Source: an uncultured Chloroflexia bacterium (lineage in GTDB: Bacteria > Chloroflexota > Anaerolineae > Promineifilales > Promineifilaceae). Taken from it: a stretch of 64,000 nt of DNA. Where the stretch lies: positions 200,100 through 264,099 of the forward strand of contig CAVPAL010000010.1 in the NCBI GenBank assembly GCA_963701435.1, in the 5' to 3' direction. The notes below the pieces were generated by a model. It did no database searches. It was not told the DNA's origin and worked only from the letters and a program-made list of their open reading frames with translations. The number at the start of each line of letters is the position of its first letter. The stretch's first letter is position 1. Both the position numbers and the translations under genes were made by a program. Shown piece by piece: positions 3,546-63,390 of the stretch.

Positions 3546-4504
3546 GTCAACCAGCGCAGCCATCCGTTAGCATATCGGCGTTTAAGCGCATTCGCTATTT
3601 CGTGCGCCTGGGACGGCCGTTACATCTGGCAGGCGGTTTTGTATTCAACGGTCTTGGCATCGCTATAACACTGTTTCTCGGAGTAACCGTCAATTGGACT
3701 GCTGCGGTCTGGTGTCAGCTTGCCATTACGGCGACCCAATTAATGACCCATTACAGCAATGACTACTTCGACCAGGACGCCGATGCCGTGACCCTCACGC
3801 CCACCCGTTGGGCCAGCGGCAGCCGCGTCTTACCCGCAGGGCTGGTTCAACCACGCGCCGCGTTGATAGCGGCGTTGGTTTGCGGCGGCATCGCTCTGGC
3901 GACTACGGCCGTGTTAACCACCATCGTGCCATCCCCATTCTGGACGTTTTGTCTGCTGCTGCTGGCCATCTTTCTGGCCTGGAATTACAGTTCGCCGCCG
4001 CTTTGGCTGAACCGGCGCGGTCTGGGCGAGATCTCCGCCGCCCTGTTAGTTCCGGGATTGACAACGCTGCTTAGTTTCCAGGTGCAAACCGGCCGGCTGG
4101 CTCTGCTGCCCATACTGGCCGTCGTGCCTTTGTGTTTTTTCCAGTTTGCCATGCTGCTCAGCGTCAACTTCCCGGATGCGGCGGGAGATACGCTTGTTAA
4201 CAAACGGACGCTGGTGGTGATTTACGGTGCGAGGCGAACCGCAACCCTGTTTCTGGTAGTTCTGGCGTGTCCTTACCTCCTGCTGCCGCTGCTGGTCTGG
4301 CTGGGCTTGCCGCTGGCCGTAGCGTTTGCCGTTCTGCTGACGCTGCCAATAGCTGCCTGGCAGGGTTGGCGCATTCGCCAGGGCGCCGCTACTGATCCGG
4401 ATCGCTGGGAAGCATTGGCTTTCTGGAGCATTGGGTTGTTGATGACCACGGCGCTGTTGGAAACGGCCGTTTTTCTGGTTCTACGTGTGACTGGTGGGCT
4501 ATAG
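3542..4504 (+). CDS. UbiA-family prenyltransferase (second, intact)
   Basis: Contains the NDYFDQDAD motif and about 8 predicted TM helices. Its start overlaps the previous stop as ATGA. Confidence 0.8.
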   Translation: MSQPAQPSVSISAFKRIRYFVRLGRPLHLAGGFVFNGLGIAITLFLGVTVNWTAAVWCQLAITATQLMTHYSNDYFDQDADAVTLTPTRWASGSRVLPAGLVQPRAALIAALVCGGIALATTAVLTTIVPSPFWTFCLLLLAIFLAWNYSSPPLWLNRRGLGEISAALLVPGLTTLLSFQVQTGRLALLPILAVVPLCFFQFAMLLSVNFPDAAGDTLVNKRTLVVIYGARRTATLFLVVLACPYLLLPLLVWLGLPLAVAFAVLLTLPIAAWQGWRIRQGAATDPDRWEALAFWSIGLLMTTALLETAVFLVLRVTGGL

Positions 4505-4561
4505 GATGGGCGCCGCACTAGACTCCTCTTCGCCTGTGGTCGTGAACCATATCGATGTGAT

Positions 4562-4690
4562 GAGGAATCGGCAGCGTCTAAAGTGAAATTAGCTAGAAAC
4601 CACGAGTTATTCCTGTCAAAAAACACTTGGATTCAAAGTTTTTTCACTTTAGAGTGATTCTAAATTTGAAATAGTGTTGCCGATTACTTA
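4562..4690 (+). repeat. Half copy (hairpin module B) of the 115-bp MITE-like family, interrupted by a nested element
   Basis: GAGGAATCGGCAGCGTCTA ... GAGTGATTCTAAATTTGAAATAGTGTTGCCGATTACTTA aligns to 23368-23425. Confidence 0.75.
4579..4651. mobile_element. Nested ~69-bp inverted-repeat element with TA target duplication
   Basis: TA-AAGTGAAA...TTTCACTT-TA sits where uninterrupted copies read CGTC-TA-GAGCG (41546-41560). Confidence 0.6.
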
Positions 4691-4725: not shown

Positions 4726-4905
4726 ATGAATCAACAGACATTTTTACAACGTCTGGAACTATTCGGTTACTACACATTGCCTCGCACCCACACAGGCAGC
4801 CCTGGCTACAGTGGACTGCTGGTTGTTCTGCGGCAGTTACCACACAATCATGAACGGAAAAGATTCAGTTACGTCTACACAAGTGGGATGCCAAAGCGAT
4901 CATGA
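4726..4905 (+). CDS. Small hypothetical protein (59 aa, below the ORF-track cutoff)
   Basis: ATG at 4726. Its stop overlaps the next ATG as ATGA (4902-4905). No recognisable family. Confidence 0.3.
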   Translation: MNQQTFLQRLELFGYYTLPRTHTGSPGYSGLLVVLRQLPHNHERKRFSYVYTSGMPKRS

Positions 4906-5399
4906 CGCATTTGCATGCCAATATGAATCAACCGCTTTCGCGCGTTGTCTGCCCGGGGCAGATCGTGATTCACAGCTTGCAAGAGCGAGAAGCGACTTTT
5001 TATACCTTTGGCGGCTCACTCGAAAGCGAAGCGCTGCCGGGCGAAACCGTTTTTTCGATCCGATCTGCTGCGCCGGTGCTGGGACTGCTGCCGGATCGGG
5101 TAACAAGTGCCGATTTGCTGGCTGACGAGACAGAATCTTTGTTTGCGCGAGCCAAGGCTCAACAGCAGCTATCCTCTCAGCAACTGCTGGATCGGCTGGT
5201 AAGGGCGGGGTCAGAAGCTGTATATCTGGCGGTCTTGCAATCGTTGCTGTCAGAAGATGACGAGACGGCCGTTCCCCATCACCACCATTACGACTTCATC
5301 AACATGCTCACTCGTGAGCGTAACTGGTACCAAAAGACAGGCCGATGGCCTTTAAATCCACACGATCTCGCCACGCTACTACAAACGGTGGGCGAATAG
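4902..5399 (+). CDS. Hypothetical protein (165 aa)
   Basis: Long ORF with coding-like composition. No family recognised. Confidence 0.5.
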   Translation: MTHLHANMNQPLSRVVCPGQIVIHSLQEREATFYTFGGSLESEALPGETVFSIRSAAPVLGLLPDRVTSADLLADETESLFARAKAQQQLSSQQLLDRLVRAGSEAVYLAVLQSLLSEDDETAVPHHHHYDFINMLTRERNWYQKTGRWPLNPHDLATLLQTVGE

Positions 5400-5424: not shown

Positions 5425-5886
5425 ATGAAACGACTCGCTTTCCCTAATCCATTTCCCCATGCGCACCCACCGGTACAGGATGTCAATGAAATTCTGGAGG
5501 AGCAGGCGACGACCGGCGAACGCGCAGCCGATTGGGTAGTAACGGCCGTTGGTTCCTGGCGTTTTATTATCGGCCAAAGCGTTCTGATACTGATATGGAT
5601 CATCCTGAACATAACGGCCTGGGTCAAACATTGGGATCCCTTCCCCTTTATCTTAATGAATCTCGTCCTTTCCATGCAAGCTGCCTTAACGGCGCCTGTG
5701 ATTATGATGAGTCAAAATCGGCAGTCGACACGTGACCGGTTGGAGGCCCAAAATGATTTTCTGATCAACCAAAAAGCCGAAGTGGAAATCAGAGTCATCC
5801 TGGAACATCTAGACGCGCACAACGAGGCGCTGGGGGAGATTTATCATTTGTTAGCCCGGCTGCAAGAAAATCGACAGGGTTTGTGA
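5425..5886 (+). CDS. DUF1003-family membrane protein
   Basis: Two TM helices plus WDPFPFILMNLVLSMQAALTAPVIMMSQNRQ, typical of DUF1003. Confidence 0.8.
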   Translation: MKRLAFPNPFPHAHPPVQDVNEILEEQATTGERAADWVVTAVGSWRFIIGQSVLILIWIILNITAWVKHWDPFPFILMNLVLSMQAALTAPVIMMSQNRQSTRDRLEAQNDFLINQKAEVEIRVILEHLDAHNEALGEIYHLLARLQENRQGL

Positions 5887-5977
5887 TGGCTGTTAGTTCG
5901 CTGCGTAAACAGTTACGGCCGTTTCCTTTTTCTACTACGTTTTAATCTTTTTATTTGAAGAACTTTCTGCGTTATGT

Positions 5978-6082
5978 CTACTCGCTATTTTTCTGCTGCC
6001 GTTTTTGAACCTGGGGCACAAGAATGGCGATTAGCAACAGCGCCAGAAACATTGACAATACAAATGCGCCTATTAAATCCAT
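5978..6082 (-). CDS. Candidate 34-aa hydrophobic peptide MDLIGAFVLSMFLALLLIAILVPQVQKRQQKNSE
   Basis: AGGAG lies about 8 nt upstream of the ATG. The peptide has a single TM helix and a basic tail. It is below the ORF-track cutoff. Confidence 0.3.
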   Translation of the reverse strand: MDLIGAFVLSMFLALLLIAILVPQVQKRQQKNSE

Positions 6083-6101
6083 GGGTTTCTCCTGAAAATA
6101 G

Positions 6102-6154
6102 CCTCCCGGAGGTTTCGTTTATGATGAGCGTTCCCGATGAAAACCTCCGGGAGG
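6102..6154 (-). other. Perfect 14-bp stem hairpin between the recombinase stop and the small ORF
   Basis: CCTCCCGGAGGTTT (6102-6115) pairs with AAACCTCCGGGAGG (6141-6154), leaving a 25-nt loop. Confidence 0.6.
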
Positions 6155-6214
6155 TTGGTTTTCATCGCTTTTGGTGTGCGGAACGCTCATGTCAACTCCT
6201 GGTTGAATTTTTCT

Positions 6215-7303
6215 TTATTCTATCCCATTTTGTTGCAGTTGGGCAGCTTCTGTGGGGGAAATATCGACATTATCCAGCCATTCGGCGACGATGTGGACGC
6301 CCAGCACAGGCGCGTAAATATTTCGTGTAGTTGACACATCGGCGTGTCCCAGATACTCCTGTACGACCTCAAGCGGCATACCTTCACGCAGCAGTTGTGT
6401 CGCGCGAAAATGCCTGAAATCATGCGCCGAAATACTGTCGTGCAGGTGCAGGGCGCGCACTGCTTTTTTGACGATATTGTGCGCCGAGGTCATAGTCAGG
6501 CGCGCGTTTTTTGCGTTGCGGCTGTGGGAAACAAACAGCGCCGGATTGCTGTCACGCCGCTCGTTCAGATAGGTCACAATCGCCTGGCGCGCGTAATCGC
6601 GCACAAAAATGGTGCGCGGTTTGCTGCCTTTGCCCATGATGGTGGCAAATTCGGAACGGCCGTTATCGACGCTGTGCCGGTTCAGAGCAACTACTTCAGA
6701 GATGCGCGCGGCGGTTGAATACAGCACTTTGACCAGCATACGGTCACGCAAAAGCGACAAACGCCGGTTGTATTTGTCATTTTCCGGCGGCAGCGGTAGT
6801 TCGTCGTAGTAGCTGATGATTTTGGGGATTTCCTGGCGGGCGTGATCTAGATCAATGACGGTTTCGGCCTGATTGCGCTCAATCTGGCGGCGCGACATCT
6901 GGCGCTGTAGTTTGCCAAGCTGCACCCCCGGCGGCAGTTCGTCCTGGCCGTCCAGATAGTGCAAATAACCAACAACGGCGGCCATGTAGGTTGTCACGGT
7001 GGCGCGGGAACGGTTGGCCAGCAGCCAGTTGCGGAAATTGAGCAGAACGGCCGTTGTGAGCCGCTCAGGCGTCAATGGCCAGACATCCTCGTTGGAAAAG
7101 CCCGCTTTTTGAAAATGCTGCAGCCAGTCGGCAAACAGGCGCAGCCCGCTGCGATAGGTGCTTTCCGTTTTCCAACTGCGCGCGCCCGCTTCCAATAAAA
7201 AACTCGTTTCATAGAGCCAGGCGGGTTCAGCGGGTAACGGCCGTTCTGAAATCGGTAAGGTTTTTTGCCGGTTTGATCCACCCATTTCATTTGATCCACC
7301 CAT
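6215..7303 (-). CDS. Tyrosine recombinase/integrase (XerC/D-phage integrase family)
   Basis: C-terminal catalytic region ...ARISEV...HDFRHFRATQLLREGMPLEVVQEYLGHADVSTTRNIYAPV. There are two in-frame ATGs (7303, 7285) from a tandem duplication. Confidence 0.85.
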   Translation of the reverse strand: MGGSNEMGGSNRQKTLPISERPLPAEPAWLYETSFLLEAGARSWKTESTYRSGLRLFADWLQHFQKAGFSNEDVWPLTPERLTTAVLLNFRNWLLANRSRATVTTYMAAVVGYLHYLDGQDELPPGVQLGKLQRQMSRRQIERNQAETVIDLDHARQEIPKIISYYDELPLPPENDKYNRRLSLLRDRMLVKVLYSTAARISEVVALNRHSVDNGRSEFATIMGKGSKPRTIFVRDYARQAIVTYLNERRDSNPALFVSHSRNAKNARLTMTSAHNIVKKAVRALHLHDSISAHDFRHFRATQLLREGMPLEVVQEYLGHADVSTTRNIYAPVLGVHIVAEWLDNVDISPTEAAQLQQNGIE

Positions 7304-8196: not shown

Positions 8197-8494
8197 AGAT
8201 TGTTTTCATTCTATCGGGTCATTTGCTGCATGACCTCAACATGTTATTGATGCTGAAGTATAACGGCCGTTTCCTATCTTATGCCACCTTTTTGTCAATC
8301 AACTTGGTTACGCAATATCAATCGCGCCTACCGCCTACCCTTCTTCCTTGACTTGCCTGTCTGTTTGATCAATAATTTTACCAAAGTCGATCATCCGGAC
8401 TGACTTTAAGTGGGCATAGGTGGAGGATTACCCCTGGCGCACTTTCCACCAGGGGGAGTTTGCCCGAACCGGAGCCGCCCAAAAGGATAACATC

Positions 8495-10189
8495 ATGCTA
8501 TATATTCAAGGTCGGATATGTGGCCGGCGCTGGTTTAGCGTGGCCGTGTTGTTATTGAGTTTTCTGTTAATGGTCTTAGTGGCCAAATTAGTGGCCGCTA
8601 CAAGCTATGCCCAGGAAGATGCGCTGCAGGCTGCACCGCTGGGCACCGAGTTTACCTACCAGGGACAGCTAAAGAGCAATGGAACGCCCTATACCGGCAC
8701 TTGCGATTTGAGGTTCTATCTGTGGGATTCGCTTAGCGGCGGCGCGCAAATTGGCGCACCGCAGACCAAGTCTAATGTAAATTTGGCGGATGGCCATTTT
8801 ACCGTGCAGCTCGACTTTGGGTCCGGCGTATTCCAGGGTAATGACCGCTGGCTGGCGGCTGAGGTCCGCTGTCCTGCCGGGGCTGGCGTTTACACAGCGC
8901 TGAGTCCGCGAAAGCCACTGACGCCAACACCCTATGCGCTGGCGCTGCCCGGATTATGGACGCAGCCAAATGCCACTAGCCCCAACCTAATCGGCGGCTT
9001 CAGCGGCAATACCATCATGGCAGGCGTCGAAGGAGCAACCATCGGTGGCGGGGGACGTAGCGGCGCTACAAACCAGGTAACCGATGTATATAGCACAATT
9101 GGTGGTGGCGCCAACAATCAAGCCGGTAACAAAGGTGGCTCATCATGGGATGCGCAATTCTCTACAGTCGGTGGCGGCGACCGCAACACCGCCAGCGGCG
9201 AGTATGCTACAGTAGGCGGGGGAAGTACAAACACCGCCAGTCAGCTGGATAGCACGGTAGCCGGGGGTAGCCACAATGATGCCAATGGTCCTCGTTCCTC
9301 GGTAGGTGGAGGTTACGGCAACGAAGCCAGCGGAGAATTCGCCATCGTAGGAGGCGGCCACCATAACACCGCCACCGGCAACTGGGCCACCGTAGCCGGA
9401 GGTGGTCCTACCGATGTCAATGATGCCAACACCGCCAACTTTGCCACCGACAACTACAGCACCATAGGCGGTGGCGGTCAAAACCTGGCGGGTACCAACA
9501 ACAATGATCCAAACGATGCTGAGTATGCCACCGTAGCCGGAGGTGAGCATAACGAAGCCGGTCGGCACGCGGCCGTGGGTGGAGGCGCATCCAATCAGGC
9601 CACCGGTACATCCTCTACCATAAGTGGCGGCTGGCTCAACACAGCTAGCGGCAGTTGGGCTACCGTCCCTGGAGGTTCAGGCAATTCGGCGGGGGGTACA
9701 GGGAGCTTCGCGGCCGGTCACTGGGCCAATGCCAACAACCAGGGCTGCTTCGTTTGGGGTGATTTCACTGAGAGTGACCTCGTCACTTGCTCTGAACCCA
9801 ACCGCACAGTCTTCCGCTCCAGCGGCGGCTTCTACATTTATACCAACGCAGCGATGACCACGGGTGTTTATCTCTCGGCCGGAAGCAATGGTTGGCAACC
9901 CCTTGAAGCGCCTGGTTCCGGTGAAAGCGAAACTTCACTCAACATGCAGGATCCCAACAATGTGGCCCTGGCCACTATTGAGGAACTGTACACCCAGAAC
10001 GAGGAACTCAAGGTACAGAACGCGGCTCAGCAGGCACAAATCGATGAACTGGCGGCGCGCGTGGCAGCGCTCGAGACGCGGTCAGCGCCTACGTCCGGGC
10101 TGCCGTTCGGCTGGCTGGCCTTGAGCGGATTAATCATCGTTGGCGGTACAGTATCAAGCTGGCGACGATTTTCAGGAGACAAGCAATGA
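8495..10189 (+). CDS. Secreted, C-terminally anchored repeat protein (YadA-head/Hep_Hag-like GGG-x-N-x-A-x-G repeats, coiled coil, TM anchor)
   Basis: The ATG at 8495 gives a signal peptide. There are more than 10 degenerate repeats (STIGGGANNQAGN / ATVGGGSTNTAS ...), then the coiled coil IEELYTQNEELKVQNAAQQAQIDELAARVAALE and a hydrophobic C-terminus followed by WRRF. Confidence 0.7.
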   Translation: MLYIQGRICGRRWFSVAVLLLSFLLMVLVAKLVAATSYAQEDALQAAPLGTEFTYQGQLKSNGTPYTGTCDLRFYLWDSLSGGAQIGAPQTKSNVNLADGHFTVQLDFGSGVFQGNDRWLAAEVRCPAGAGVYTALSPRKPLTPTPYALALPGLWTQPNATSPNLIGGFSGNTIMAGVEGATIGGGGRSGATNQVTDVYSTIGGGANNQAGNKGGSSWDAQFSTVGGGDRNTASGEYATVGGGSTNTASQLDSTVAGGSHNDANGPRSSVGGGYGNEASGEFAIVGGGHHNTATGNWATVAGGGPTDVNDANTANFATDNYSTIGGGGQNLAGTNNNDPNDAEYATVAGGEHNEAGRHAAVGGGASNQATGTSSTISGGWLNTASGSWATVPGGSGNSAGGTGSFAAGHWANANNQGCFVWGDFTESDLVTCSEPNRTVFRSSGGFYIYTNAAMTTGVYLSAGSNGWQPLEAPGSGESETSLNMQDPNNVALATIEELYTQNEELKVQNAAQQAQIDELAARVAALETRSAPTSGLPFGWLALSGLIIVGGTVSSWRRFSGDKQ

Positions 10190-12892: not shown

Positions 12893-13897
12893 TTATTTTA
12901 GGTTACGCAAGAAGGATAACAGCCCTGTTTGATACGGTTGATATTCATCTACCTGTTGATTTTGAATACAGGCGTCCATATCAGCATGTGGTGCCGGCTC
13001 TTCAACCTTCGTCAGGCGCAAGTCGTCGATGAAAAAGTCTTTGGTGAGCTGGTATTTGCTCTTGACGCGCACATCGACCTTCACGACCCCATCCTCAGGC
13101 ACGGTAAAAGTCTGCTCATGTTTGCACCAATGCCGGTTGCCCATCATCTGGCTGTTAGCCCAGGCCCCAACGTCATTGATCCAAACGCTGGATTCAGCCG
13201 ACCAAGGATCCGTGTCGTTGTACAAATGCGCGCGCACCGGTACAGTGATACGCATTTCCGCGCCCGGCTCCAGACCGGTGATGGTCTGGCTCAACTCCGT
13301 GCCAAAGGCCTGGCTGGCGGAGAATACTTTGTATACGGTAATACCGTCCAAAATGAGCGCATCCGACCCGCCGGGTTGTTCATCTGGCGGAAGCTGGTGG
13401 GCCAATTTATGCACACATTCGCAAATGCCGGTAGCCTCATCAGGTGAATCAAAGAGCGGCTGGCCAGGCTCAACCCAATACAAGGCCCAATCGATGGGGC
13501 GCTGGTTGCCAAATGCAATCGTGGTCCAACCTTCCTCAAATGAGCCATTGTCAAGGCCATAATTGCTCTCGTCAGGCGTGGGCGTGATGGTTGGCGTCGG
13601 CTCAATCGTGGCGGTCGGCGTGCTGCTGGGCGTCGGGGTAACCGAGGCGGTCGGCGTCACGGTTGCCGTGGGCGTGATGGTTGCTGTCACCGTCGCCGTC
13701 ATCGTCGATGTGGGCGTCATTTCCTGTGTGGGTGTATTTTCCGGCCGCAAAACGACAGGAAGATGAGCCATTTCATCATTTTCATCCGCATAGAGCGCCG
13801 CCCGTCGAAATTCGCCCGTTAAAAATATGCCGGCAAAAAGAAGCAGCGTTAAAAAACCAAGTATCAATGAACCTTTCAGCCAGTTACTGCGCATCAT
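12893..13897 (-). CDS. Secreted protein with Thr/Pro-rich linker and CBM-like jelly-roll domain
   Basis: Signal anchor, then a TPT-rich linker (TPTATVTPTASVTPTPSSTPTATIEPTPTITPTP), then a NGSFEEGW-type start of a carbohydrate-binding-like domain. Confidence 0.6.
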   Translation of the reverse strand: MMRSNWLKGSLILGFLTLLLFAGIFLTGEFRRAALYADENDEMAHLPVVLRPENTPTQEMTPTSTMTATVTATITPTATVTPTASVTPTPSSTPTATIEPTPTITPTPDESNYGLDNGSFEEGWTTIAFGNQRPIDWALYWVEPGQPLFDSPDEATGICECVHKLAHQLPPDEQPGGSDALILDGITVYKVFSASQAFGTELSQTITGLEPGAEMRITVPVRAHLYNDTDPWSAESSVWINDVGAWANSQMMGNRHWCKHEQTFTVPEDGVVKVDVRVKSKYQLTKDFFIDDLRLTKVEEPAPHADMDACIQNQQVDEYQPYQTGLLSFLRNLK

Positions 13898-22537: not shown

Positions 22538-23071
22538 TCAGAGAGCCTTGACTGCAGCAACCTGTGTACTCAATTTCTGCAGCAAGTTGAGCAAATCATC
22601 CTGTTCAGCGCTGCTCAGCGCGCCGAAAAAGTGGTCTATTGTCTCCAGATGGTGGTGCGTGTGTTCGCTGACGACGGCGCGGCCGGCGTCTGTCAGGCTA
22701 ATGTTAAAACGCCGTCGGTCATTGGGATCCAACCGCCGTTCAACCAGCCCTGCTTCCTCGAGATTACGGATAAAGGAACTCATGGTATTACGGCTGACGC
22801 CTTGCCGGTTACTAATTTCGGAAGGGTTCAATTCTGCGCGGTCGCCCATTTGCTCTGCAAAGAAGAGATGCATGAGCACACGATATTGCGCGTAGGAGAG
22901 CCCGGCGTCGTCCACGCTTTGCTCGCCTACATGGTAAATGGAGCGGGTCACGAATCCCAACTCATCCATCAGGCGAATGGTCTGGGGATCGATTTGGGGA
23001 TTGAAGCTTTGCATGAACTGCATCCACTTTTGGCGTTTATCCTTGTTCTGAAGCCAACTTTTATGACTCAT
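22538..23071 (-). CDS. MarR-family transcriptional regulator
   Basis: Winged HTH ...LNPSEISNRQGVSRNTMSSFIRNLEEAGLVERRLDPNDRRRFNISLT. It lies 14 nt upstream of the ABC genes. Confidence 0.9.
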   Translation of the reverse strand: MSHKSWLQNKDKRQKWMQFMQSFNPQIDPQTIRLMDELGFVTRSIYHVGEQSVDDAGLSYAQYRVLMHLFFAEQMGDRAELNPSEISNRQGVSRNTMSSFIRNLEEAGLVERRLDPNDRRRFNISLTDAGRAVVSEHTHHHLETIDHFFGALSSAEQDDLLNLLQKLSTQVAAVKAL

Positions 23072-23310
23072 ATGTTGTCCTTTCAGGGTGTCGCTAGCTA
23101 TCCTTCCCGGTGAAAAACTGCCGGGAAGCCAGCGTGTGTCGCTATTACTAATACGAATTATACGCCATCGAACTATTCTGTCAAGAATCAGCCTGTGAGC
23201 TTTTTGGGCGAGATGGCGCGGTGAAATATCCTATTGCTATGGCTAATAGTTGCCGCGTCATCCCGCCCCTACCATAAGACGTGTCTAAATTGAGAATTGC
23301 TGTTACGAAT

Positions 23311-23425
23311 TAGGTAAACCGCAGAAACTATTCGGAAATCCCAAAGGACTTGAACTGCGGTTTCCTTGAGGAATCGGCAACGTCTAGAACGATTCTAATT
23401 TTGAAATATTGTTGCCGATTACCTA
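23311..23425 (+). repeat. Full copy of the 115-bp TA-flanked two-hairpin MITE-like element
   Basis: TAGGTAAACCGCAG...GTTGCCGATTACCTA. Internal stems pair 23316-23324 with 23355-23363, and 23372-23381 with 23411-23420. Confidence 0.85.
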
Positions 23426-40378: not shown

Positions 40379-40413
40379 AATTTTTTAATCTTCAAGAATT
40401 TTCTGCGGTGTAC

Positions 40414-41343
40414 CTAAACTTCATATGTCATAATGCGACGCTGCCACCCAACCAGGTATATCAACACGCCAAACAAAATAATCAGCAGCATCATGGCTGC
40501 CACAGTGGCGCCCATGGCCGCATTTCCAAGCTGTAGTTGCTGTCCAAAAAAGGTGCGGAAGAACAGCGTGCCCATAATGTCGGTGGAAAAATTAGGACCG
40601 GCCAAAGCCCCTTTTACCGTATAAATCAAATCAAAGGCGTTAAAATTGCCGACAAAAGTCAAGATTGCCACAATACCCACCGTTGGTAAAATCAGCGGAA
40701 ACTTGACGCGCCAAAATACAGTCCAGGAATTGGCGCCGTCTACATATGCCGCCTCAATCAGTTCATCGGGAATACTGATCAGCGCTGCATAAAACAGCAT
40801 GAGCGGGATGCCCACAAACTGCCACACCGAAATTAGAGAAAGCGTGTTTAGGGCGGTCGTCTCAAGCCCTAACCAGGGCTGAAAAAGATGACCGAGGCTG
40901 AAAAAATTCAGAAAACTTTCGGCAATTCCCCACAGTGGGCTCAGAATTAACTGCCAGATAAAACCGACAATCACAACCGAAAGGATGGTGGGAATGAACA
41001 ACATGGTGCGATAAGCGCCAACCCAGCGCAGCGTGCGCCGGCTCAATAGCGCCGCCAAAAACAGCGCAATTGAATTTTGTACAACCATGTGAATCATGAA
41101 AAAAATAACGTTGTTTTTGAGCGCGCCCCAAAAACGCACTGACCACAGCGGATCGGTTAACAGGGTGACATAATTCTGGAAACCAACAAAAGCACGCGTA
41201 TCGTTTTCCAAAAAACTCAAACGCAATGAATCTACCAAAGGATAAATCATGAAGACGGTATACACAATCACCGCCGGCGCTAAAAATACAATTATGTGGG
41301 TTGGGAAAGGCTTGCGTTTGCGTGATTTTCCCGCTTGCATCAC
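40414..41343 (-). CDS. Carbohydrate ABC transporter permease (MalF-like)
   Basis: EAA loop EAAYVDGANSWTVFWRVKFPLILP. Confidence 0.9.
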   Translation of the reverse strand: MMQAGKSRKRKPFPTHIIVFLAPAVIVYTVFMIYPLVDSLRLSFLENDTRAFVGFQNYVTLLTDPLWSVRFWGALKNNVIFFMIHMVVQNSIALFLAALLSRRTLRWVGAYRTMLFIPTILSVVIVGFIWQLILSPLWGIAESFLNFFSLGHLFQPWLGLETTALNTLSLISVWQFVGIPLMLFYAALISIPDELIEAAYVDGANSWTVFWRVKFPLILPTVGIVAILTFVGNFNAFDLIYTVKGALAGPNFSTDIMGTLFFRTFFGQQLQLGNAAMGATVAAMMLLIILFGVLIYLVGWQRRIMTYEV

Positions 41344-41475
41344 GACCCTCCTTCTATGATAAAGAGATAAAGAAAATGAAAGTAGGGGCAGACCTGTGTG
41401 TCTGCCCTGGATTAGAGCACATACATGGGTGCGCCCCTACCGTTGTCTAAAATCCAATCAAATCGCTTTACAGAT

Positions 41476-41590
41476 TAGGTAAACCGCAGAAAGTATTGGG
41501 AAATGCCAAAGGACTTGAACTGCGGTTTCCTTGAGGAATCGGCAACGTCTAGAGCGATTCTAATTTTGAAATATTGTTGCCGATTACCTA
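41476..41590 (+). repeat. Full copy of the 115-bp MITE-like element (tandem copy 1)
   Basis: It has 4 mismatches to 23311-23425. Confidence 0.85.
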
Positions 41591-41703
41591 GGTAAACCGC
41601 AGAAAGTATTGGGAAATGCCAAAGGACTTGAACTGCGGTTTCCTTGAGGAATCGGCAACGTCTAGAGCGATTCTATTTTAGAAGTACTGTTGCCGATTAC
41701 CTA
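41589..41703 (+). repeat. Full copy of the 115-bp MITE-like element (tandem copy 2, shares the junction TA)
   Basis: The junction reads TTACCTAGGTAA. Divergence is confined to the second hairpin loop. Confidence 0.85.
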
Positions 41704-41711
41704 AACAAATG

Positions 41712-44309
41712 TTATGGCGTATACCAGGCATCCAGCCCATCTTGAATCTGCTGGGCTGCTTCTTGAGCAGTGATGTCGCCGTTGATGACCTGCGCGCTTA
41801 CGCGCCACAGCTCATTTTCCAGGTTCGGCTCGCCGCGCGAAAGAATCTGGTATGAGTTCCGAATGGTGGAATCACACTCACTGCGCCAGCTCAAGAACTC
41901 TTGCGCCAGCGGATCGTCCAAAGAGACGTCGACATCAGCCAGCGAGAAGAAACCGGGCAGCGAATTGCTGTAGAGGTCAGCGAATTCGGCCGACGCCACC
42001 CAACTCAGGAACGCTTCTGCCGCTGCCGGATTCTCGGTGGACGGATTCATGCCAATCGCAATGTCGGTATGGTCGCTGATGTAGCAGGGATCGCCTGCAT
42101 TGGCGACCGGCGGTTTGAAAGCGCCCATCGCAAAATCGGCCTGGTCATTGAACAAGGAAATGTCCCAGGAACCGGCCGGATAAATGCCTGCCAGACCCAA
42201 AGTAAAGAAGTTTTGCGAATCAGGATAGGTTTGGGCCTGATAGCCGGCGGGCATGTAAGGTCCCCATTGGGCCAATTGGTCCCAGACCGCCACGTATTCA
42301 GGATCAGTGAATTTGCCCTCGCCGCTGATGAGCGCGAGACGGCCGTCTTCACCGGCCCAATAGTTGGGGCCAATATTTTGGAAACCCATCGTGGCTGCTT
42401 CCCACTGATCGGCCGTGCCTATGTCCAGCGGCGTGTAGCCGCCTTCCTGGAGCGCATCCATTACCGCAAAGAATTCTTCCACCGTGGCCGGCTCTTCCAG
42501 ACCTAATTCAGCAAAGGCGTCGGCGTTATAGATGAATCCATGAATCACGGATGCCATCGGTACGCAAAAGACATCAGAGCCATCGTCGGTGATCCAGGCG
42601 CTCTTGGCCACGGAGCCAAAGTTTTCCATACCCGGCAGATCGTTGAGAGAGGCCAGGTTTCCTTGATCAAACAAAGCCAGGGAACGATCAAACGGGCGGC
42701 AGGTAATCAGGTCGCCGGCCGTGCCGCCTTCCAGGCGCGTGTTCAATGCGCCGTCATATTCGGTGGGCGCTGTGGGCGCAAAGGTTATTTCAATGTTCGG
42801 GTATTGGGCATTGAAAGCGGGAATGATCACATCTTCCCAGATGGTCAGGTCATCGTTGCGCCAGCTTTCAATCACGAGCGCACCGGACAGCTCCGTATCG
42901 CCGGCTGCTTCTGCATCGGCAACGGCCGCTTCCGCCACATCACTCGCTTCACTGCCAGGCGTATACCAGGCGTCTAACCCATCTTGAATCTGCTGGGCTG
43001 CTTCTTCAGCAGTGATGTCGCCGTTGATGACCTGCGCGCTTACGCGCCACAGCTCATTTTCCAGGTTCGGCTCGCCGCGCGAAAGAATCTGGTATGAATT
43101 CCGAATGGTGGAATCACACTCACTGCGCCAGCTCAAGAACTCTTGCGCCAGCGGATCGTCCAAAGAGACGTCGACATCAGCCAGCGAGAAGAAACCGGGC
43201 AGCGAATTGCTGTACAGGTCAGCAAATTCAGCCGAAGCCACCCAGTTCAGGAAGGTTTCCGCCGCTTCGGGATTTGGCGTGTCGGCGTTCATGCCGATGG
43301 CAATGTCGGTATGGTCGCTGATGTAACAGGGGTCGCCCGCATTGGCGACCGGCGGTTTAAAGGCGCCCATGGCGAAGTCGGCCTGGTCGTTGAATAAGGA
43401 AATGTCCCAGGAACCAGCGGGGTAAATCGCGCTGTCACCCAGGGTAAAGAGGTTCTGTGAGTCAGGATAGGTTTGAGCCTGGAAGCCGCCGGGCATGTAT
43501 GCGCCCCATTGGGCCAATTGGTCCCAGACCGCCACGTATTCAGGATCGGTGAATTTGCCCTCGCCGCTGATGAGCGCGAGACGGCCGTCTTCACCGGCCC
43601 AATAGTTGGGGCCAATATTTTGGAAACCCATCGTGGCTGCTTCCCACTGATCGGCCGTACCTATGTCCAGCGGCGTGTAGCCGGCGGCCTGAATTGCATC
43701 CAGGGCCGCAAAAAATTCTTCAACCGTTTCCGGTTCTGCAACGCCGACCTCATTAAAAATGTCAGCGTTGTAGATGAAACCATGAATCACGGATGCCATC
43801 GGTACGCAAAAGACGTCAGAACCATCGTCGGTGATCCAGGCGCTTTTGGCCACCGAGCCAAAGTTAGCCATACCGGGTAAATCGTTGAGAGAGGCCAGGT
43901 TTCCTTGATCGAACAAAGCCAGTGAACGGTCAAACGGGCGGCAGGTAATCAGATCGCCGGCCGTTCCGCCTTCCAGGCGTGTGTTCAATGCGCCGTCATA
44001 TTCGGTGGGCGCTGTCGGTGAAAAAACAATCTCAATATTGGGGTATTCGGCATTGAAGGCGGGAATAATCACATCTTCCCAGATTGTCAGGTCGTCATTG
44101 CGCCAGCTTTCTATCGTCAGGGTAACCATTTCATCGCTGGCAGCGGCTTCTTCTGTGGTCTCTTCAGCGGCGGGCGCTTCCTCGACGGCGGCCTCATCCG
44201 CAGGCGCGGCCTCTTCCGGTTCAGCCGGAGCAGTGTCGGTTCCACCACCACCGCAGGCCGCCAAGAGCAGCCCTAAAATTACAAGCAATAACCAGATTTT
44301 TTTGTGCAT
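41712..44309 (-). CDS. Lipoprotein with two tandem, near-identical sugar ABC solute-binding domains
   Basis: Lipobox LLAAC. ESWRNDDLTIWEDVIIPAFNA...DGLDAWYTP occurs twice. The ATG at 44309 has GAGGAGAA upstream. Confidence 0.85.
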   Translation of the reverse strand: MHKKIWLLLVILGLLLAACGGGGTDTAPAEPEEAAPADEAAVEEAPAAEETTEEAAASDEMVTLTIESWRNDDLTIWEDVIIPAFNAEYPNIEIVFSPTAPTEYDGALNTRLEGGTAGDLITCRPFDRSLALFDQGNLASLNDLPGMANFGSVAKSAWITDDGSDVFCVPMASVIHGFIYNADIFNEVGVAEPETVEEFFAALDAIQAAGYTPLDIGTADQWEAATMGFQNIGPNYWAGEDGRLALISGEGKFTDPEYVAVWDQLAQWGAYMPGGFQAQTYPDSQNLFTLGDSAIYPAGSWDISLFNDQADFAMGAFKPPVANAGDPCYISDHTDIAIGMNADTPNPEAAETFLNWVASAEFADLYSNSLPGFFSLADVDVSLDDPLAQEFLSWRSECDSTIRNSYQILSRGEPNLENELWRVSAQVINGDITAEEAAQQIQDGLDAWYTPGSEASDVAEAAVADAEAAGDTELSGALVIESWRNDDLTIWEDVIIPAFNAQYPNIEITFAPTAPTEYDGALNTRLEGGTAGDLITCRPFDRSLALFDQGNLASLNDLPGMENFGSVAKSAWITDDGSDVFCVPMASVIHGFIYNADAFAELGLEEPATVEEFFAVMDALQEGGYTPLDIGTADQWEAATMGFQNIGPNYWAGEDGRLALISGEGKFTDPEYVAVWDQLAQWGPYMPAGYQAQTYPDSQNFFTLGLAGIYPAGSWDISLFNDQADFAMGAFKPPVANAGDPCYISDHTDIAIGMNPSTENPAAAEAFLSWVASAEFADLYSNSLPGFFSLADVDVSLDDPLAQEFLSWRSECDSTIRNSYQILSRGEPNLENELWRVSAQVINGDITAQEAAQQIQDGLDAWYTP
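41716..44114. repeat. In-frame tandem duplication, period 1242 bp (414 codons)
   Basis: 41716 aligns with 42958. Identical 67-aa antisense ORFs at 41770 and 43012 in the ORF track confirm long identical stretches. Confidence 0.9.
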
Positions 44310-44552
44310 TATTTTTATTCTCCTCAAATGACGTTTATAGGGTCGTTAATATGGTTGGATGTCAGTTTTCATCCGCAATTATAGCTGAAGATGGTGCGGA
44401 AAAAACACCAACCACCAGCCAAAGTGGCTGGCTGAAAATTATCTGCTGTTTATTAATATCTGCGTCACCTCCTTTGATATAGACATTAAGATAATGATTT
44501 TGTTTGTAGTAACCGCATTGGCGGTGGGCGATCCGGAGATCGCAGACGACGC

Positions 44553-46865: not shown

Positions 46866-46990
46866 AAGACTGATTTTTTACAAGCCAAGCACAATTTTGC
46901 GGATTTGTTATGCGTCATATTCTTCACCACGCATTTCTAAGTAAACTGTGGAAAGTATATTGAATTCCTGCTAAACGAAATCTGGGAATT

Positions 46991-47052
46991 CCTCAAGGAA
47001 ACCGCAAATTTCCAACTCCTCTTATTTTCAAGGATTTTCTGCGATTTACCTA
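46991..47052 (-). repeat. Half copy (hairpin module A) of the MITE-like family, inverted
   Basis: The reverse complement TAGGTAAATCGCAGAAAATCC...TTTGCGGTTTCCTTGAGG aligns to 23311-23370. Confidence 0.7.
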
Positions 47053-47335
47053 ACCTAAATGACGCCTAGTTATGTATGAGCCGAGGTGGGACCGACTCAG
47101 TGTAACCTGGAAAATTATAATTAGGCCACATCGGACTATCCTGAAGCAGGCTCCCATAGCAGTGTCTTCAACTACCTTTTGGCCTATGATAAGAATGACA
47201 ACCGCACCGTGTTCGGTTACACTAATCTTATGCTGTCTACCGATGATTTCTATGCGTATTTACCCTTCCTGCGCCACAAAAGGGCGCACGCCTTAGAAGC
47301 GCCATCCGCTGTTCTTTTGAAGCCAGGAGCGCCAC

Positions 47336-61152: not shown

Positions 61153-63390
61153 TTACGGCCGTTTCGCGCGTTTTTGGGCCCGTTTCATCAATATTTTGTG
61201 GAATTCGCGCTCAGATTCATCCGCATCCGGCCGGCGCAGCGTGTACTGCCCATCGGCATCCAACTCCCAGGCAAGGCGGTTGTCGGCCAGAGCCGTTTCC
61301 AATAATTCAATTAGTTTCGCCTGCAAGGCGGGGTCTTCAATGGGCGCAATCAGCTCAACCCGCCGCTTCAGATTGCGCGTACGCCAGTCGGCGCTGCCGG
61401 TGAAGGTGAGCGGTTCGCCGTTGTTGTGGAAATAATAGATGCGATCATGCTCCAGAAAGCGGCCCAATATACTCAGCACGCGGATATTGTCGCTGAAGCC
61501 GGGCAGGCCGGGGCGCAGCAGGGTGTGGCCGCGAATGATCAAATCAATCTGTACGCCGGCCTGAGAGGCGCGGTATAAACGGCGAATCATGCCGGGATCG
61601 TCCAGCGCGTTCATTTTGGCAATGATACGGCCGTCGCCCGCCGCCGCCTGGTTCTCAATTTCCTGCTCAATCAGCTGGTAAAATTGTTTACGCATATTGT
61701 CAGGCGCGACAAATGCCTTCTCATAACTTTGTTGGGGCGCAAAGCCGGTCAAACCATGATAGAGATTCACCAAATCACGCCCCAGCGCCGGATTGCACGT
61801 CAGCAGTCCCAGGTCAGTGTACAGGCGCGCCGTTTTGGGATGGTAATTGCCCGTACCAATATGGCAGTAAGTGCGGATCACGCCGTCGCTGTCCTGGCGC
61901 ACAACCAACGTGCTTTTGGCATGCGTCTTCAAACCTACCAGGCCGTAAGCCACATGTACGCCGGAATTTTCCAGCATGCGCGCCCACTCGATATTATTGG
62001 CTTCGTCAAATCGCGCTTTCACTTCCACCAGTACCGCCACCTGCTTGCCGCTCTCCCCCGCCTGCATCAACGCCTTGATGATGGGCGATTCGTCGCTGGT
62101 GCGATACAAGGTTTGTTTAATGGCCAAAACGCGCGGATCGGCTGCTGCTTCTTCAATAAAGCGCTGCACGCTCACGGCAAAGGAATCGTATGGATGGTGG
62201 ACCAGCAAATCCCCCTGCCTCATGATGGCGAACACGTCGCGGGTTTCCTTGGTTTCCCCCTCATGACGGAAAATATAGGGTACCGATGGTTCCCAGGCTT
62301 CAAAGCGCAGATCAGGCATCGCAAAATCAGCAAAAAAGAAACAATCGGTCAAATTGAGCAGCCCATCAACCTCAATCAAGTCCACGGCTTCCAGGTCCAG
62401 CTCGCGCATCAGCAGGCGGCGGTCATAAATAGGCATCGCCTGCGCCACCTCCAGACGCACAACGGGCGCAAAACGGCGCTCACGCAGCTCTTCTGAAATC
62501 ATGGCCAGCAAATCGTCCGCCTCCTCCTCATCTCGCCCCATATCTGCGTTACGCGTGATGCGGAAGGGATGCACACTGACAACATCCATGCCGGGAAAAA
62601 GCTCACCAATATGGTGGGCAATCAGTTGTTCGGCGGGCAGGAAACGCAACGGCCGTTCCCCATTCACCTCCTCCTTACCGTCCACCCAAATCCAGCGCGC
62701 CGTGGGAATCTTCAGGCGCGCAAAATGGGTTGTGCCCAGTTCGGGATGCTGCAAAATGATGGCCAGCGAAAGGCTCAGGTTTGAAATAAAGGGAAAAGGA
62801 TGGCCGGGGTCAACCGTGAGCGGCGTCAAGATCGGGTAAATTTGGGTGCGGAAATAGGTGTGCAGGCGCGCCTGCTGCTCAGGCGTGAGTTCATCATAAT
62901 CACAGATCAAAATACCGGCTTCCTGATACAGGGCCGGTTTGAGGGTCTGTTCCCAGGCGGCGGTCATCGTCTGGTGCATCAATTCAATCGCCGGCCGCAG
63001 CAGTTTGAGCTGTTCATGCGGGGTACGGCCGTCTACCGACAATTCGCGTACGTCGGCGGCTTCCTGCCGTTTGAGACCGCCAACGCGCTTTTGGGTGAAC
63101 TCATCCAAATTACTCGCGGTGATGGCCACAAACCGCACGCGTTCCAGCAGCGGCGTGCGTAGATCCAATGCCAGATGCAGTACGCGCCAGTTAAAATCGA
63201 GCCAGCTTAACTCCTGATTAAAATACAAATAGGGATGTTTAAACGTGGCGTCTTCCGGCAAGGCGCGCGGAACGACGGCTTTGGGCAGTAAAACGGCCGT
63301 TTCTGCCGGCGGCGATCCATTGTCAGACAAAATCGTTTCAACAGCTGATATTTCTGCATTCAGAGGGACAGTTAATTCTTGTGAGGACAT
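61153..63390 (-). CDS. ppk1: Polyphosphate kinase 1
   Basis: YFNQELSWLDFNWRVL, LDEFTQKRVGGL, and two PLD-like C-terminal domains (HAKSTLV...). The ATG at 63390 has GGTGGAG upstream. Confidence 0.9.
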   Translation of the reverse strand: MSSQELTVPLNAEISAVETILSDNGSPPAETAVLLPKAVVPRALPEDATFKHPYLYFNQELSWLDFNWRVLHLALDLRTPLLERVRFVAITASNLDEFTQKRVGGLKRQEAADVRELSVDGRTPHEQLKLLRPAIELMHQTMTAAWEQTLKPALYQEAGILICDYDELTPEQQARLHTYFRTQIYPILTPLTVDPGHPFPFISNLSLSLAIILQHPELGTTHFARLKIPTARWIWVDGKEEVNGERPLRFLPAEQLIAHHIGELFPGMDVVSVHPFRITRNADMGRDEEEADDLLAMISEELRERRFAPVVRLEVAQAMPIYDRRLLMRELDLEAVDLIEVDGLLNLTDCFFFADFAMPDLRFEAWEPSVPYIFRHEGETKETRDVFAIMRQGDLLVHHPYDSFAVSVQRFIEEAAADPRVLAIKQTLYRTSDESPIIKALMQAGESGKQVAVLVEVKARFDEANNIEWARMLENSGVHVAYGLVGLKTHAKSTLVVRQDSDGVIRTYCHIGTGNYHPKTARLYTDLGLLTCNPALGRDLVNLYHGLTGFAPQQSYEKAFVAPDNMRKQFYQLIEQEIENQAAAGDGRIIAKMNALDDPGMIRRLYRASQAGVQIDLIIRGHTLLRPGLPGFSDNIRVLSILGRFLEHDRIYYFHNNGEPLTFTGSADWRTRNLKRRVELIAPIEDPALQAKLIELLETALADNRLAWELDADGQYTLRRPDADESEREFHKILMKRAQKRAKRP

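Follow-up and report, generated by a model that had tools for sequence, protein, structure and literature searches.

A two-hairpin, MITE-like repeat family with mostly TA flanks in a lineage of Chloroflexota

Gene content and repeat copies of the locus

The window, that is, the whole 64-kb stretch of DNA analyzed here, contains an ABC transporter operon on the minus strand, a PIN/MazE toxin-antitoxin pair, a MarR-family gene and a gene encoding a Xer-like tyrosine recombinase (Table 1). Three intact copies of a short repeat (c1, c2 and c3), two half copies and one 30-nt fragment were detected in the window. The copy c1 is located between the toxin-antitoxin pair and the MarR gene, with the stop codon of the PIN toxin gene on one side and the promoter of the MarR gene on the other. 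The copies c2 and c3 form a pair within the operon, in the spacer that separates the first permease gene from the sugar-binding-protein gene. This tandem has a period of 113 nt and a single TA is common to both copies (TA-[c2]-TA-[c3]-TA), and 8 nt separate the end of c3 from the binding-protein stop codon. Since c1 is found 18 kb from the pair in an unrelated context, dispersal and not local duplication is indicated. The MarR promoter, which has c1 just upstream of it, is a perfect sigma-70 consensus promoter (12/12 positions; TTGACA, 16 nt, TATAAT).

Table 1. Positions of the repeat copies and of other features described in the text
Feature	Position	Strand	Remarks
c1, full copy	23311-23425	+	TA flanks 23311-12 and 23424-25; 111-bp body 23313-23423
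c1, hairpin A	~23313-23365	+	followed by linker TTGA
c1, hairpin B	~23370-23423	+	
c2, full copy	41476-41590	+	first of head-to-tail pair
c3, full copy	41589-41703	+	second of pair; TA 41589-90 common to c2
Solo module B	4561-4690	+	starts with TGAGGAAT, the inner linker end; finishes with GATTACTTA
Insert in loop of solo module B	4587-4649		~63 nt, unique
Near-direct 8-nt repeats bracketing the insert	4579-4586; 4650-4657		TAAAGTGA; TAGAGTGA
Solo module A, inverted	46988-47053	-	outer TA end, linker and first GGAAT of module B kept
Module A outer-arm remnant, 30 nt	40389-40417	-	weak nhmmer match, E = 0.24
PIN toxin gene, stop codon	23582		
MarR-family gene	22538-23071		
Sigma-70 consensus promoter	23157-23184	-	upstream of MarR-family gene
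Sugar-binding-protein gene	41712-44327	-	871-aa fusion
Repeats within binding-protein gene	41716-42015 / 42958-43257; 42195-42494 / 43437-43736		
GC-rich spacer hairpin	41385-41415		L032 9915-9950; L033 9840-9870; also in L034 and L037 spacers
Xer-like tyrosine recombinase gene	6215-7303	-	Phage_integrase domain
Three small ORFs	4902-5399; 5425-5886; 5974-6330		no family match
Palindrome AACGGCCGTT, examples	903-912; 1897-1906; 4462-4471 ... 63292-63301		
36-nt tandem degenerate units	13578-13703		inside ORF 12893-13897
45-nt periodic degenerate repeats	9156-9675		inside 589-aa ORF 8420-10189

The identity between c1 and c2 was 96.5% (4 mismatches in 115 nt), and c2 and c3 were also 96.5% identical. 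A central 23-mer, GCGGTTTCCTTGAGGAATCGGCA, occurred three times exactly in the window, compared with an expectation of 0 from shuffles, and a fourth match with 3 mismatches lies inside the inverted half copy. An earlier reading of the window, made from the sequence alone (the sequence-only reading), had described three full copies, four mismatches between the first two, and two half copies, one of module B and one of inverted module A. All of these were recovered, the full copies at the same coordinates, and comparison with the genes of the window agreed that every copy is intergenic. The further claim that each copy is bounded by TA was borne out in the three full copies, but in the half copies TA is restricted to the canonical outer end. 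The 30-nt fragment is an addition to that reading.

The full copies and the solo module B are in plus orientation, while the solo module A and the fragment are in minus orientation. The loop of the solo module B carries an insert with an additional hairpin, which lengthens the hairpin of the module. The borders of this insert resemble an 8-bp target duplication of another tiny element, and a second copy was not found in any of the sequences compared (the window and the related loci). The 30-nt remnant lies in the 35-nt gap between two permease genes, and its terminal CTA provides the TAG stop codon of the upstream permease gene.

Structure of the element

The element is a 111-bp body with two perfect-stem hairpins, and 2-nt direct repeats adjoin it on both sides. 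The order within the body is GGTAAACCGCAG - loop - CTGCGGTTTCC, the linker TTGA, and GGAATCGGCAAC - loop - GTTGCCGATTACC. The outer termini AGGTAAACCGCAG and AGGTAATCGGCAA are imperfect inverted repeats matching at 10/13 positions, the same count as in the sequence-only reading. Terminal inverted repeats as in MITEs are therefore present (GGTAAACCGCA versus GGTAATCGGCA, 10/13), and the outer ends share the consensus GGTAA(A/T)C(C/G)GCA in inverted orientation. Every end sequence recurs once internally in inverted form, so that each half is a self-contained hairpin. In addition, the arms of module B resemble the reverse complement of the arms of module A, and the internal junction TTTCC-TTGA-GGAAT is similar to the tandem-copy junction TTACC-TA-GGTAA. 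These features give the element the appearance of a dimer in which two related hairpin units are fused through TTGA.

Each full copy in the window has two perfect stems of 12-13 bp, and the hairpins are ~55 nt long with loops of ~30 nt. The minimum free energies of the window copies ranged from -38.7 to -43.4 kcal/mol (z = -5.1 to -5.7). None of 200 shuffles folded as stably, and the fold of the reverse strand was equally good. The two-hairpin body proposed earlier was thus confirmed, and both hairpins are real.

Modules also occur alone or reordered, as the solo A and solo B copies in the window and as a B-A-B mosaic in locus L011, where the array reads B-AA-[A-B]-AA. Both solo B copies start exactly with TGAGGAAT, which indicates a defined inner boundary and not a random deletion end.

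An analysis of covariation across copies, as the sequence-only reading had advised, showed that the stems of the local hairpins co-vary. In the stems, 478 of 500 cells were Watson-Crick pairs, and the mismatches included 5 G-U and 8 A-C. Standard pairing amounted to 96.6% with four pairs altered on both sides, a result reached by 0/500 shuffles; the search pattern fixed part of both stems and inflates this conservation, but the compensatory changes lie outside the probe and are unaffected. At least four to five independent compensatory events were counted, namely CAC/GTG in L002, L014 and L016, GCGA/TCGC in L011a, CAA/TTG in L011b and AGC/GCT in L008. Long-range pairing of the outer ends was rejected as the structure in favor of the two local hairpins, as it showed no covariation and 78% pairing. 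The hairpins are therefore maintained, most simply at the DNA level. Covariation of stems is the one feature not predicted for an element of which a DDE transposase reads the ends alone, which hints that the hairpin itself matters.

Flanking dinucleotides and target sites

For the 20 intact copies, the body was cut out by its ends and the adjoining bases were tabulated. The left and right dinucleotides were TA/TA in 14 copies, TT/TT in two, AA/AA in one, CA/TA in two and TA/AG in one. Equal dinucleotides were therefore found on both sides in 17/20 copies and unequal ones in 3/20, and the expectation that copies in general would be bordered by TA held for the 14 TA/TA copies but not for the remaining six. 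TT is paired with TT and AA with AA, that is, in direct orientation, while an inverted repeat predicts TT/AA. This argues for a 2-bp target duplication, and the flanks look like duplicated target located outside the inverted repeat.

Position -3 was T in 17/21 copies and position +3 was A in 20/21. Judged from these frequencies, the preferred target may be a T-TA-A context (T/TA/A). Alternatively, these two strongly conserved bases could be part of the element. The arrays TA-[c2]-TA-[c3]-TA and B-AA-[A-B]-AA both fit a second insertion into the flanking dinucleotide of the first copy. Sites of the T/TA/A type occur in stop codons, and for at least six copies there is a 2-3-nt overlap with such a codon.

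Distribution of the family

An exact 20-mer scan of ~186,000 species-representative genomes returned 17 loci. Among these, 16 were true copies, and all of them belonged to four Ardenticatenaceae/Anaerolineae (Chloroflexota) MAGs: WYBM01 (CFX1) with 7 copies, CAYGMR01 with 6, CBDUOF01 with 2 and JAGRDI01 with 1. The remaining locus, from Planctomycetota (L001), was discarded as a chance match within coding sequence. An eighth CFX1 copy was present in the L011 array, where TCGAGG replaces TTGAGG. The genome of the window was missing from the 20-mer matches and is thus a further carrier. When JGI/ENA metagenome contigs were scanned with the 20-mer carrying Y at one position, 14 loci were obtained, of which two were true and intact copies and 12 were discarded as chance coding-sequence matches. 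The search for further copies advised in the sequence-only reading therefore extended the family beyond the window.

In total, 20 intact copies were available, three from the window and 17 from the four MAGs and two metagenome contigs. Their length was 110-116 bp, exactly 111 bp in 15/20, and they have common ends. The copies sit at unrelated intergenic sites with identical boundaries in at least five genomes of one lineage. Plasmid and phage sequences gave no blastn match, nor did 5,426 complete E. coli genomes in a sensitive blastn search, and a plasmid, phage or enterobacterial origin was ruled out on these grounds. The host range of the family is narrow and its copy number is modest. There are probably tens of copies per genome, which is no more than an estimate, as repeats are under-represented in MAGs. 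In short-read (Logan) assemblies of at least 20 samples, contigs end inside the element flanking one CFX1 gene on both sides, a pattern that a multi-copy repeat would produce.

Among themselves, the window copies show 93-96% identity, while the best match in any other genome is 86%. Likeness within the genome is thus much greater than likeness between genomes, which shows recent spread in the genome of the window. The CFX1 copies fall into two subfamilies with 78-89% identity, and those of CAYGMR01 are ~80% alike. Spread was therefore older in these two genomes, and the most recent activity is seen in the genome of the window. No prior description of such a family was found among the literature searched on MITEs in Chloroflexi/Ardenticaten*, which was a limited collection.

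Orthologous operons without the element

The ABC transporter operon carrying c2 and c3 was compared with its orthologs in four relatives, L032 (GCA_975967675.1), L033 (CP070822.1), L034 and L037, whose permeases are 81-85% identical. In the window, 368 nt with two copies separate the binding-protein gene from the permease gene, while the corresponding spacer measures 123 nt in L032, 196 nt in L033, 212 nt in L034 and 277 nt in L037, each with 0 copies. Subtraction of two copies and one TA reduces the window spacer to 142 nt. A profile search of ~21 kb per relative (~10 kb on either side) detected no element copy in 4/4 relatives. The closest non-self permease is 85% identical, and the closest non-self relative of a CFX1 flanking gene is 65% identical. 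Because the spacers are too diverged for base-level alignment, absence is established at the level of related species and gives no exact footprint. The empty sites in relatives that had been called for earlier were accordingly seen as element-free spacers in the four genomes, but not as a base-level empty site.

All five genomes have a conserved GC-rich hairpin in the binding-protein/permease spacer, with the arms GGGGGCTAGAAA...TTTCTAGCCCCC in the relatives and CAGGGCAGAC...GTCTGCCCC in the window. This hairpin probably serves as an attenuator within the operon or stabilizes the mRNA, and is probably older than the insertion of the element. The sugar-binding-protein gene of the window encodes a fusion of two tandem units with 90-96% identical DNA. 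The double form is also present in L032 (868 aa) and L034 (871 aa), and L033 has a single form of 464 aa.

Search for a mobilizing enzyme

The sequence-only reading had noted that the window contains no transposase. Pfam screening of 37 window ORFs agreed; these gave ordinary assignments or no match, and no DDE, HUH/Y1 or serine recombinase domain was detected. A transposase or a longer element with the same ends was likewise not found in ~330 kb (the window and ~270 kb of related loci). A fuzzy search for extra element ends bracketing a gene recovered the known copies alone in all loci compared, and no ORF recurred between element-bearing loci as a candidate transposase. From the TA duplication, mobilization of the IS630/Tc1-mariner type, as suggested in the sequence-only reading, would be a reasonable guess. 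The three equal non-TA flanks (TT, TT and AA) are a mild argument against a strictly TA-dependent enzyme.

The Xer-like gene is located 1.5 kb from the solo module B and has no demonstrable link to the family. Its product scored below the cut-offs of the XerC, XerA and XerD models. Together with the three small ORFs that adjoin it, this gene may represent a small integrated element. A nearby tRNA gene as an integration target was dismissed, as the window contains 0 tRNA genes. Sites of the attC or dif type were dismissed for the repeat, as judged from the sequence, because core motifs and spacer lengths were unsuitable.

Interpretation as a probable non-autonomous transposable element

The 111-bp repeats are a real, non-coding and probably mobile DNA family, and we consider it likely that the element is a non-autonomous transposable element, that is, a bacterial MITE. 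The MITE-like family suggested by the sequence-only reading is borne out by the recurrence of a 111-bp unit with constant boundaries in at least five genomes, by duplication-like flanks, by absence in relatives and by likeness within genomes. The low copy number obtained with the 20-mer (CFX1 7, CAYGMR01 6, other MAGs 1-2) counts against it, as do the co-varying stems and the negative search for a partner element in ~330 kb. On this reading, the two-hairpin repeats are a MITE family restricted to one lineage, with a target duplication of 2 bp (TA), and as such an ordinary sort of element and no novel category.

In the proposed mechanism, a transposase encoded elsewhere in the genome would recognize the element ends, insert the element at TA, preferably in a T-TA-A context, and the two central bases would be duplicated. 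Stop codons (TAA, TAG) and AT-rich spacers would supply such target sites, and surviving copies would therefore be intergenic, often touching a stop codon and often inside operons. The mobilizing enzyme is presumably of the DDE type and would act by cut-and-paste or copy-in, and the hairpins may affect host transcripts.

The element probably works like the TA-duplicating MITEs Correia/NEMIS and ERIC/RU-1, small hairpin-forming elements that an enzyme supplied in trans moves. No transposase is known for Correia/NEMIS in its host Neisseria. Like the present element, Correia/NEMIS is non-coding and intergenic with a length of ~100-155 bp, terminal inverted repeats and stable hairpins. It also duplicates TA at insertion and is often found inside operons and transcripts. 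However, its sequence is unrelated, and the present element comes from Chloroflexota and is built from two adjacent hairpins, with the end sequence repeated in their arms and with halves that also occur solo. Correia/NEMIS is mentioned in PMC2759123. TA duplication together with stable stem-loops is the pattern of ERIC/RU-1 and related bacterial MITEs (PMC2759123). ERIC/RU-1 (127 bp) shares the terminal TA, the TA duplication, a long stable stem-loop and an intergenic multi-copy distribution (PMC2759123). The present element differs from ERIC in having no sequence similarity (blastn, 5,426 complete E. coli genomes), two independent hairpins instead of one long hairpin, and a copy number that seems lower. 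MITEs of the IS630/Tc1-mariner type share the 2-bp TA duplication, the short terminal inverted repeats and a target context preference. IS630 prefers C-TA-G, whereas the present element is associated with T-TA-A. Further differences are the three copies with equal non-TA flanks and the fact that no IS630-family transposase or full-length parent with these ends was found in ~330 kb.

Several features could also be read as those of a hairpin-recognized REP/REPIN repeat or an IS200/IS605 derivative (PATE), moved by an HUH (Y1) transposase on single-stranded DNA, with the TA flanks as cleavage-site sequence and no duplication. Each half forms a perfect hairpin, and the stems keep pairing via compensatory changes (0/500 shuffles), which the long-range pairing of the outer ends lacks. 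The solo modules and the B-A-B array recall mosaic REP arrays, REP/BIME/REPIN systems with RAYT being hairpin-forming intergenic repeats with alternating mosaics of two related units. Like the present element, these systems favor positions that follow a stop codon or that separate the binding-protein gene from the permease gene in ABC operons, and the gap occupied by c2 and c3 is such a classic REP position. HUH-type insertion takes place without target duplication, yet equal 2-nt flanks were found in 17/20 copies. The flanks moreover show symmetry, with T-TA to the left and TA-A to the right, whereas an IS200/IS605 derivative inserts 3' of a fixed tetra- or pentanucleotide that is found on the left side alone. 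Both orientations occur inside the 64-kb window, and neither a Y1 transposase domain nor a RAYT gene was found among the 37 screened window ORFs. According to PMC3733652, REPs are imperfect palindromes of 20-40 nt, most of them defined by a terminal GTAG or CGTC tag. Measured against that definition, the present element lacks the tag, its hairpin feet TAGGTAAACC and GAGGAATCGG having no conserved GTAG or CGTC on either strand, and it has ~55-nt hairpins with much longer loops (~30 nt) and duplication-like flanks. Taken together, we regard a REP or PATE origin as unlikely.

A functional RNA or DNA signal kept by selection, such as an mRNA stabilizer, a read-through attenuator or an outward promoter, was also considered. 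The REP sequence in malEFG is a model for stabilizing upstream mRNA or attenuating read-through. In agreement with such a role, most copies are flanked by co-directional genes and often directly follow a stop codon or directly precede a ribosome-binding site and ATG, the fold is very stable on either strand, and the module B loop contains TTGAAA 17 nt before the terminal TAA plus flank. However, the orientation relative to co-directional flanking genes is mixed (~5-7 sense, 9-11 antisense). An A-C mismatch is a G-U pair on the opposite strand, and with a balance of 5 G-U to 8 A-C neither strand shows the wobble tolerance of a selected RNA. Rfam gave 0 hits for the whole window at the gathering score, and at E = 10 the tandem pair gave chance matches to eukaryotic miRNA/snoRNA models alone (12-16 bits). 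A known RNA family (riboswitch, sRNA or leader) was dismissed for lack of an Rfam match. There is no T-run after the hairpins, and a consensus scan called no promoter or terminator in the window copies, so that an outward promoter in module B was rejected as well. The four relatives manage without the element in the orthologous operon, which already contains a GC-rich hairpin of its own. The structured RNA that the sequence-only reading had offered as an equal alternative finds no support, given the missing Rfam match, the mixed orientation and the balanced G-U/A-C counts, and a selected signal of any of these types seems distinctly improbable.

The mobile unit might also be the hairpin rather than the end sequence, in which case A and B would each be recognized, folded in single-stranded DNA, by an enzyme that has so far had no connection with MITEs. 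The fixed inner boundary of the solo modules (TGAGGAAT), the B-A-B mosaics and the compensatory stem changes would follow from this, but we regard it as a speculative reading with little chance of being correct. Such a hairpin recognition system could be tied to the ~300-fold over-represented palindrome AACGGCCGTT described below. Least of all do we expect the repeats to be recombination or binding sites of a site-specific recombinase that spread via a circular intermediate with crossover at a 2-bp core in the palindromic junctions GGTTTCC-TTGA-GGAATCGG and GATTACC-TA-GGTAAACC: each of the two junction types is an inverted repeat with a center of 2-4 nt, equal dinucleotides including TT/TT and AA/AA are expected from such a crossover, and the Xer-like gene is close to the solo module B, but this gene adjoins no full copy and does not recur in other loci, the 2-4-nt spacers are too short for the core sites of tyrosine recombinases, whose overlap regions are 6-8 bp, and no serine recombinase was seen among the 37 screened window ORFs.

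Because it breaks short-read assemblies, the family is a practical marker for genomes of Ardenticatenaceae, which are common members of wastewater and anammox reactor communities. Insertion at stop codons and inside operons could alter expression through the strong hairpins. The modular two-hairpin build with co-varying stems offers a possible test of hairpin versus end recognition in bacterial MITEs.

An iterated palindrome and other repeats in the window

The 10-nt palindrome AACGGCCGTT occurs 41 times in the 64-kb window, compared with 0.13 expected from shuffles, and is found both inside and between genes. Its core ACGGCCGT occurs 75 times. The palindrome also occurs in the loci L003, L008, L010 and L012. 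Its density in loci of CAYGMR01, CBDUOF01 and JAGRDI01 is about that of the window, and it is much less frequent in CFX1 and in L032-L037, the relatives lacking the element. It seems to be an analog of HIP1, a highly iterated palindrome of cyanobacteria, and no paper on it was found in the literature searched. The arms of the palindrome weakly resemble the stems of the element (GGAAACGGCCG versus GGAATCGGCAA), and its extended form resembles a loop-less version of these stems.

Two further repeat tracts lie within ORFs of the window. The first is composed of 36-nt tandem degenerate units rich in GTGGGCGT, in an ORF with no Pfam match, and the second consists of degenerate repeats with a 45-nt period inside the ORF of 589 aa.
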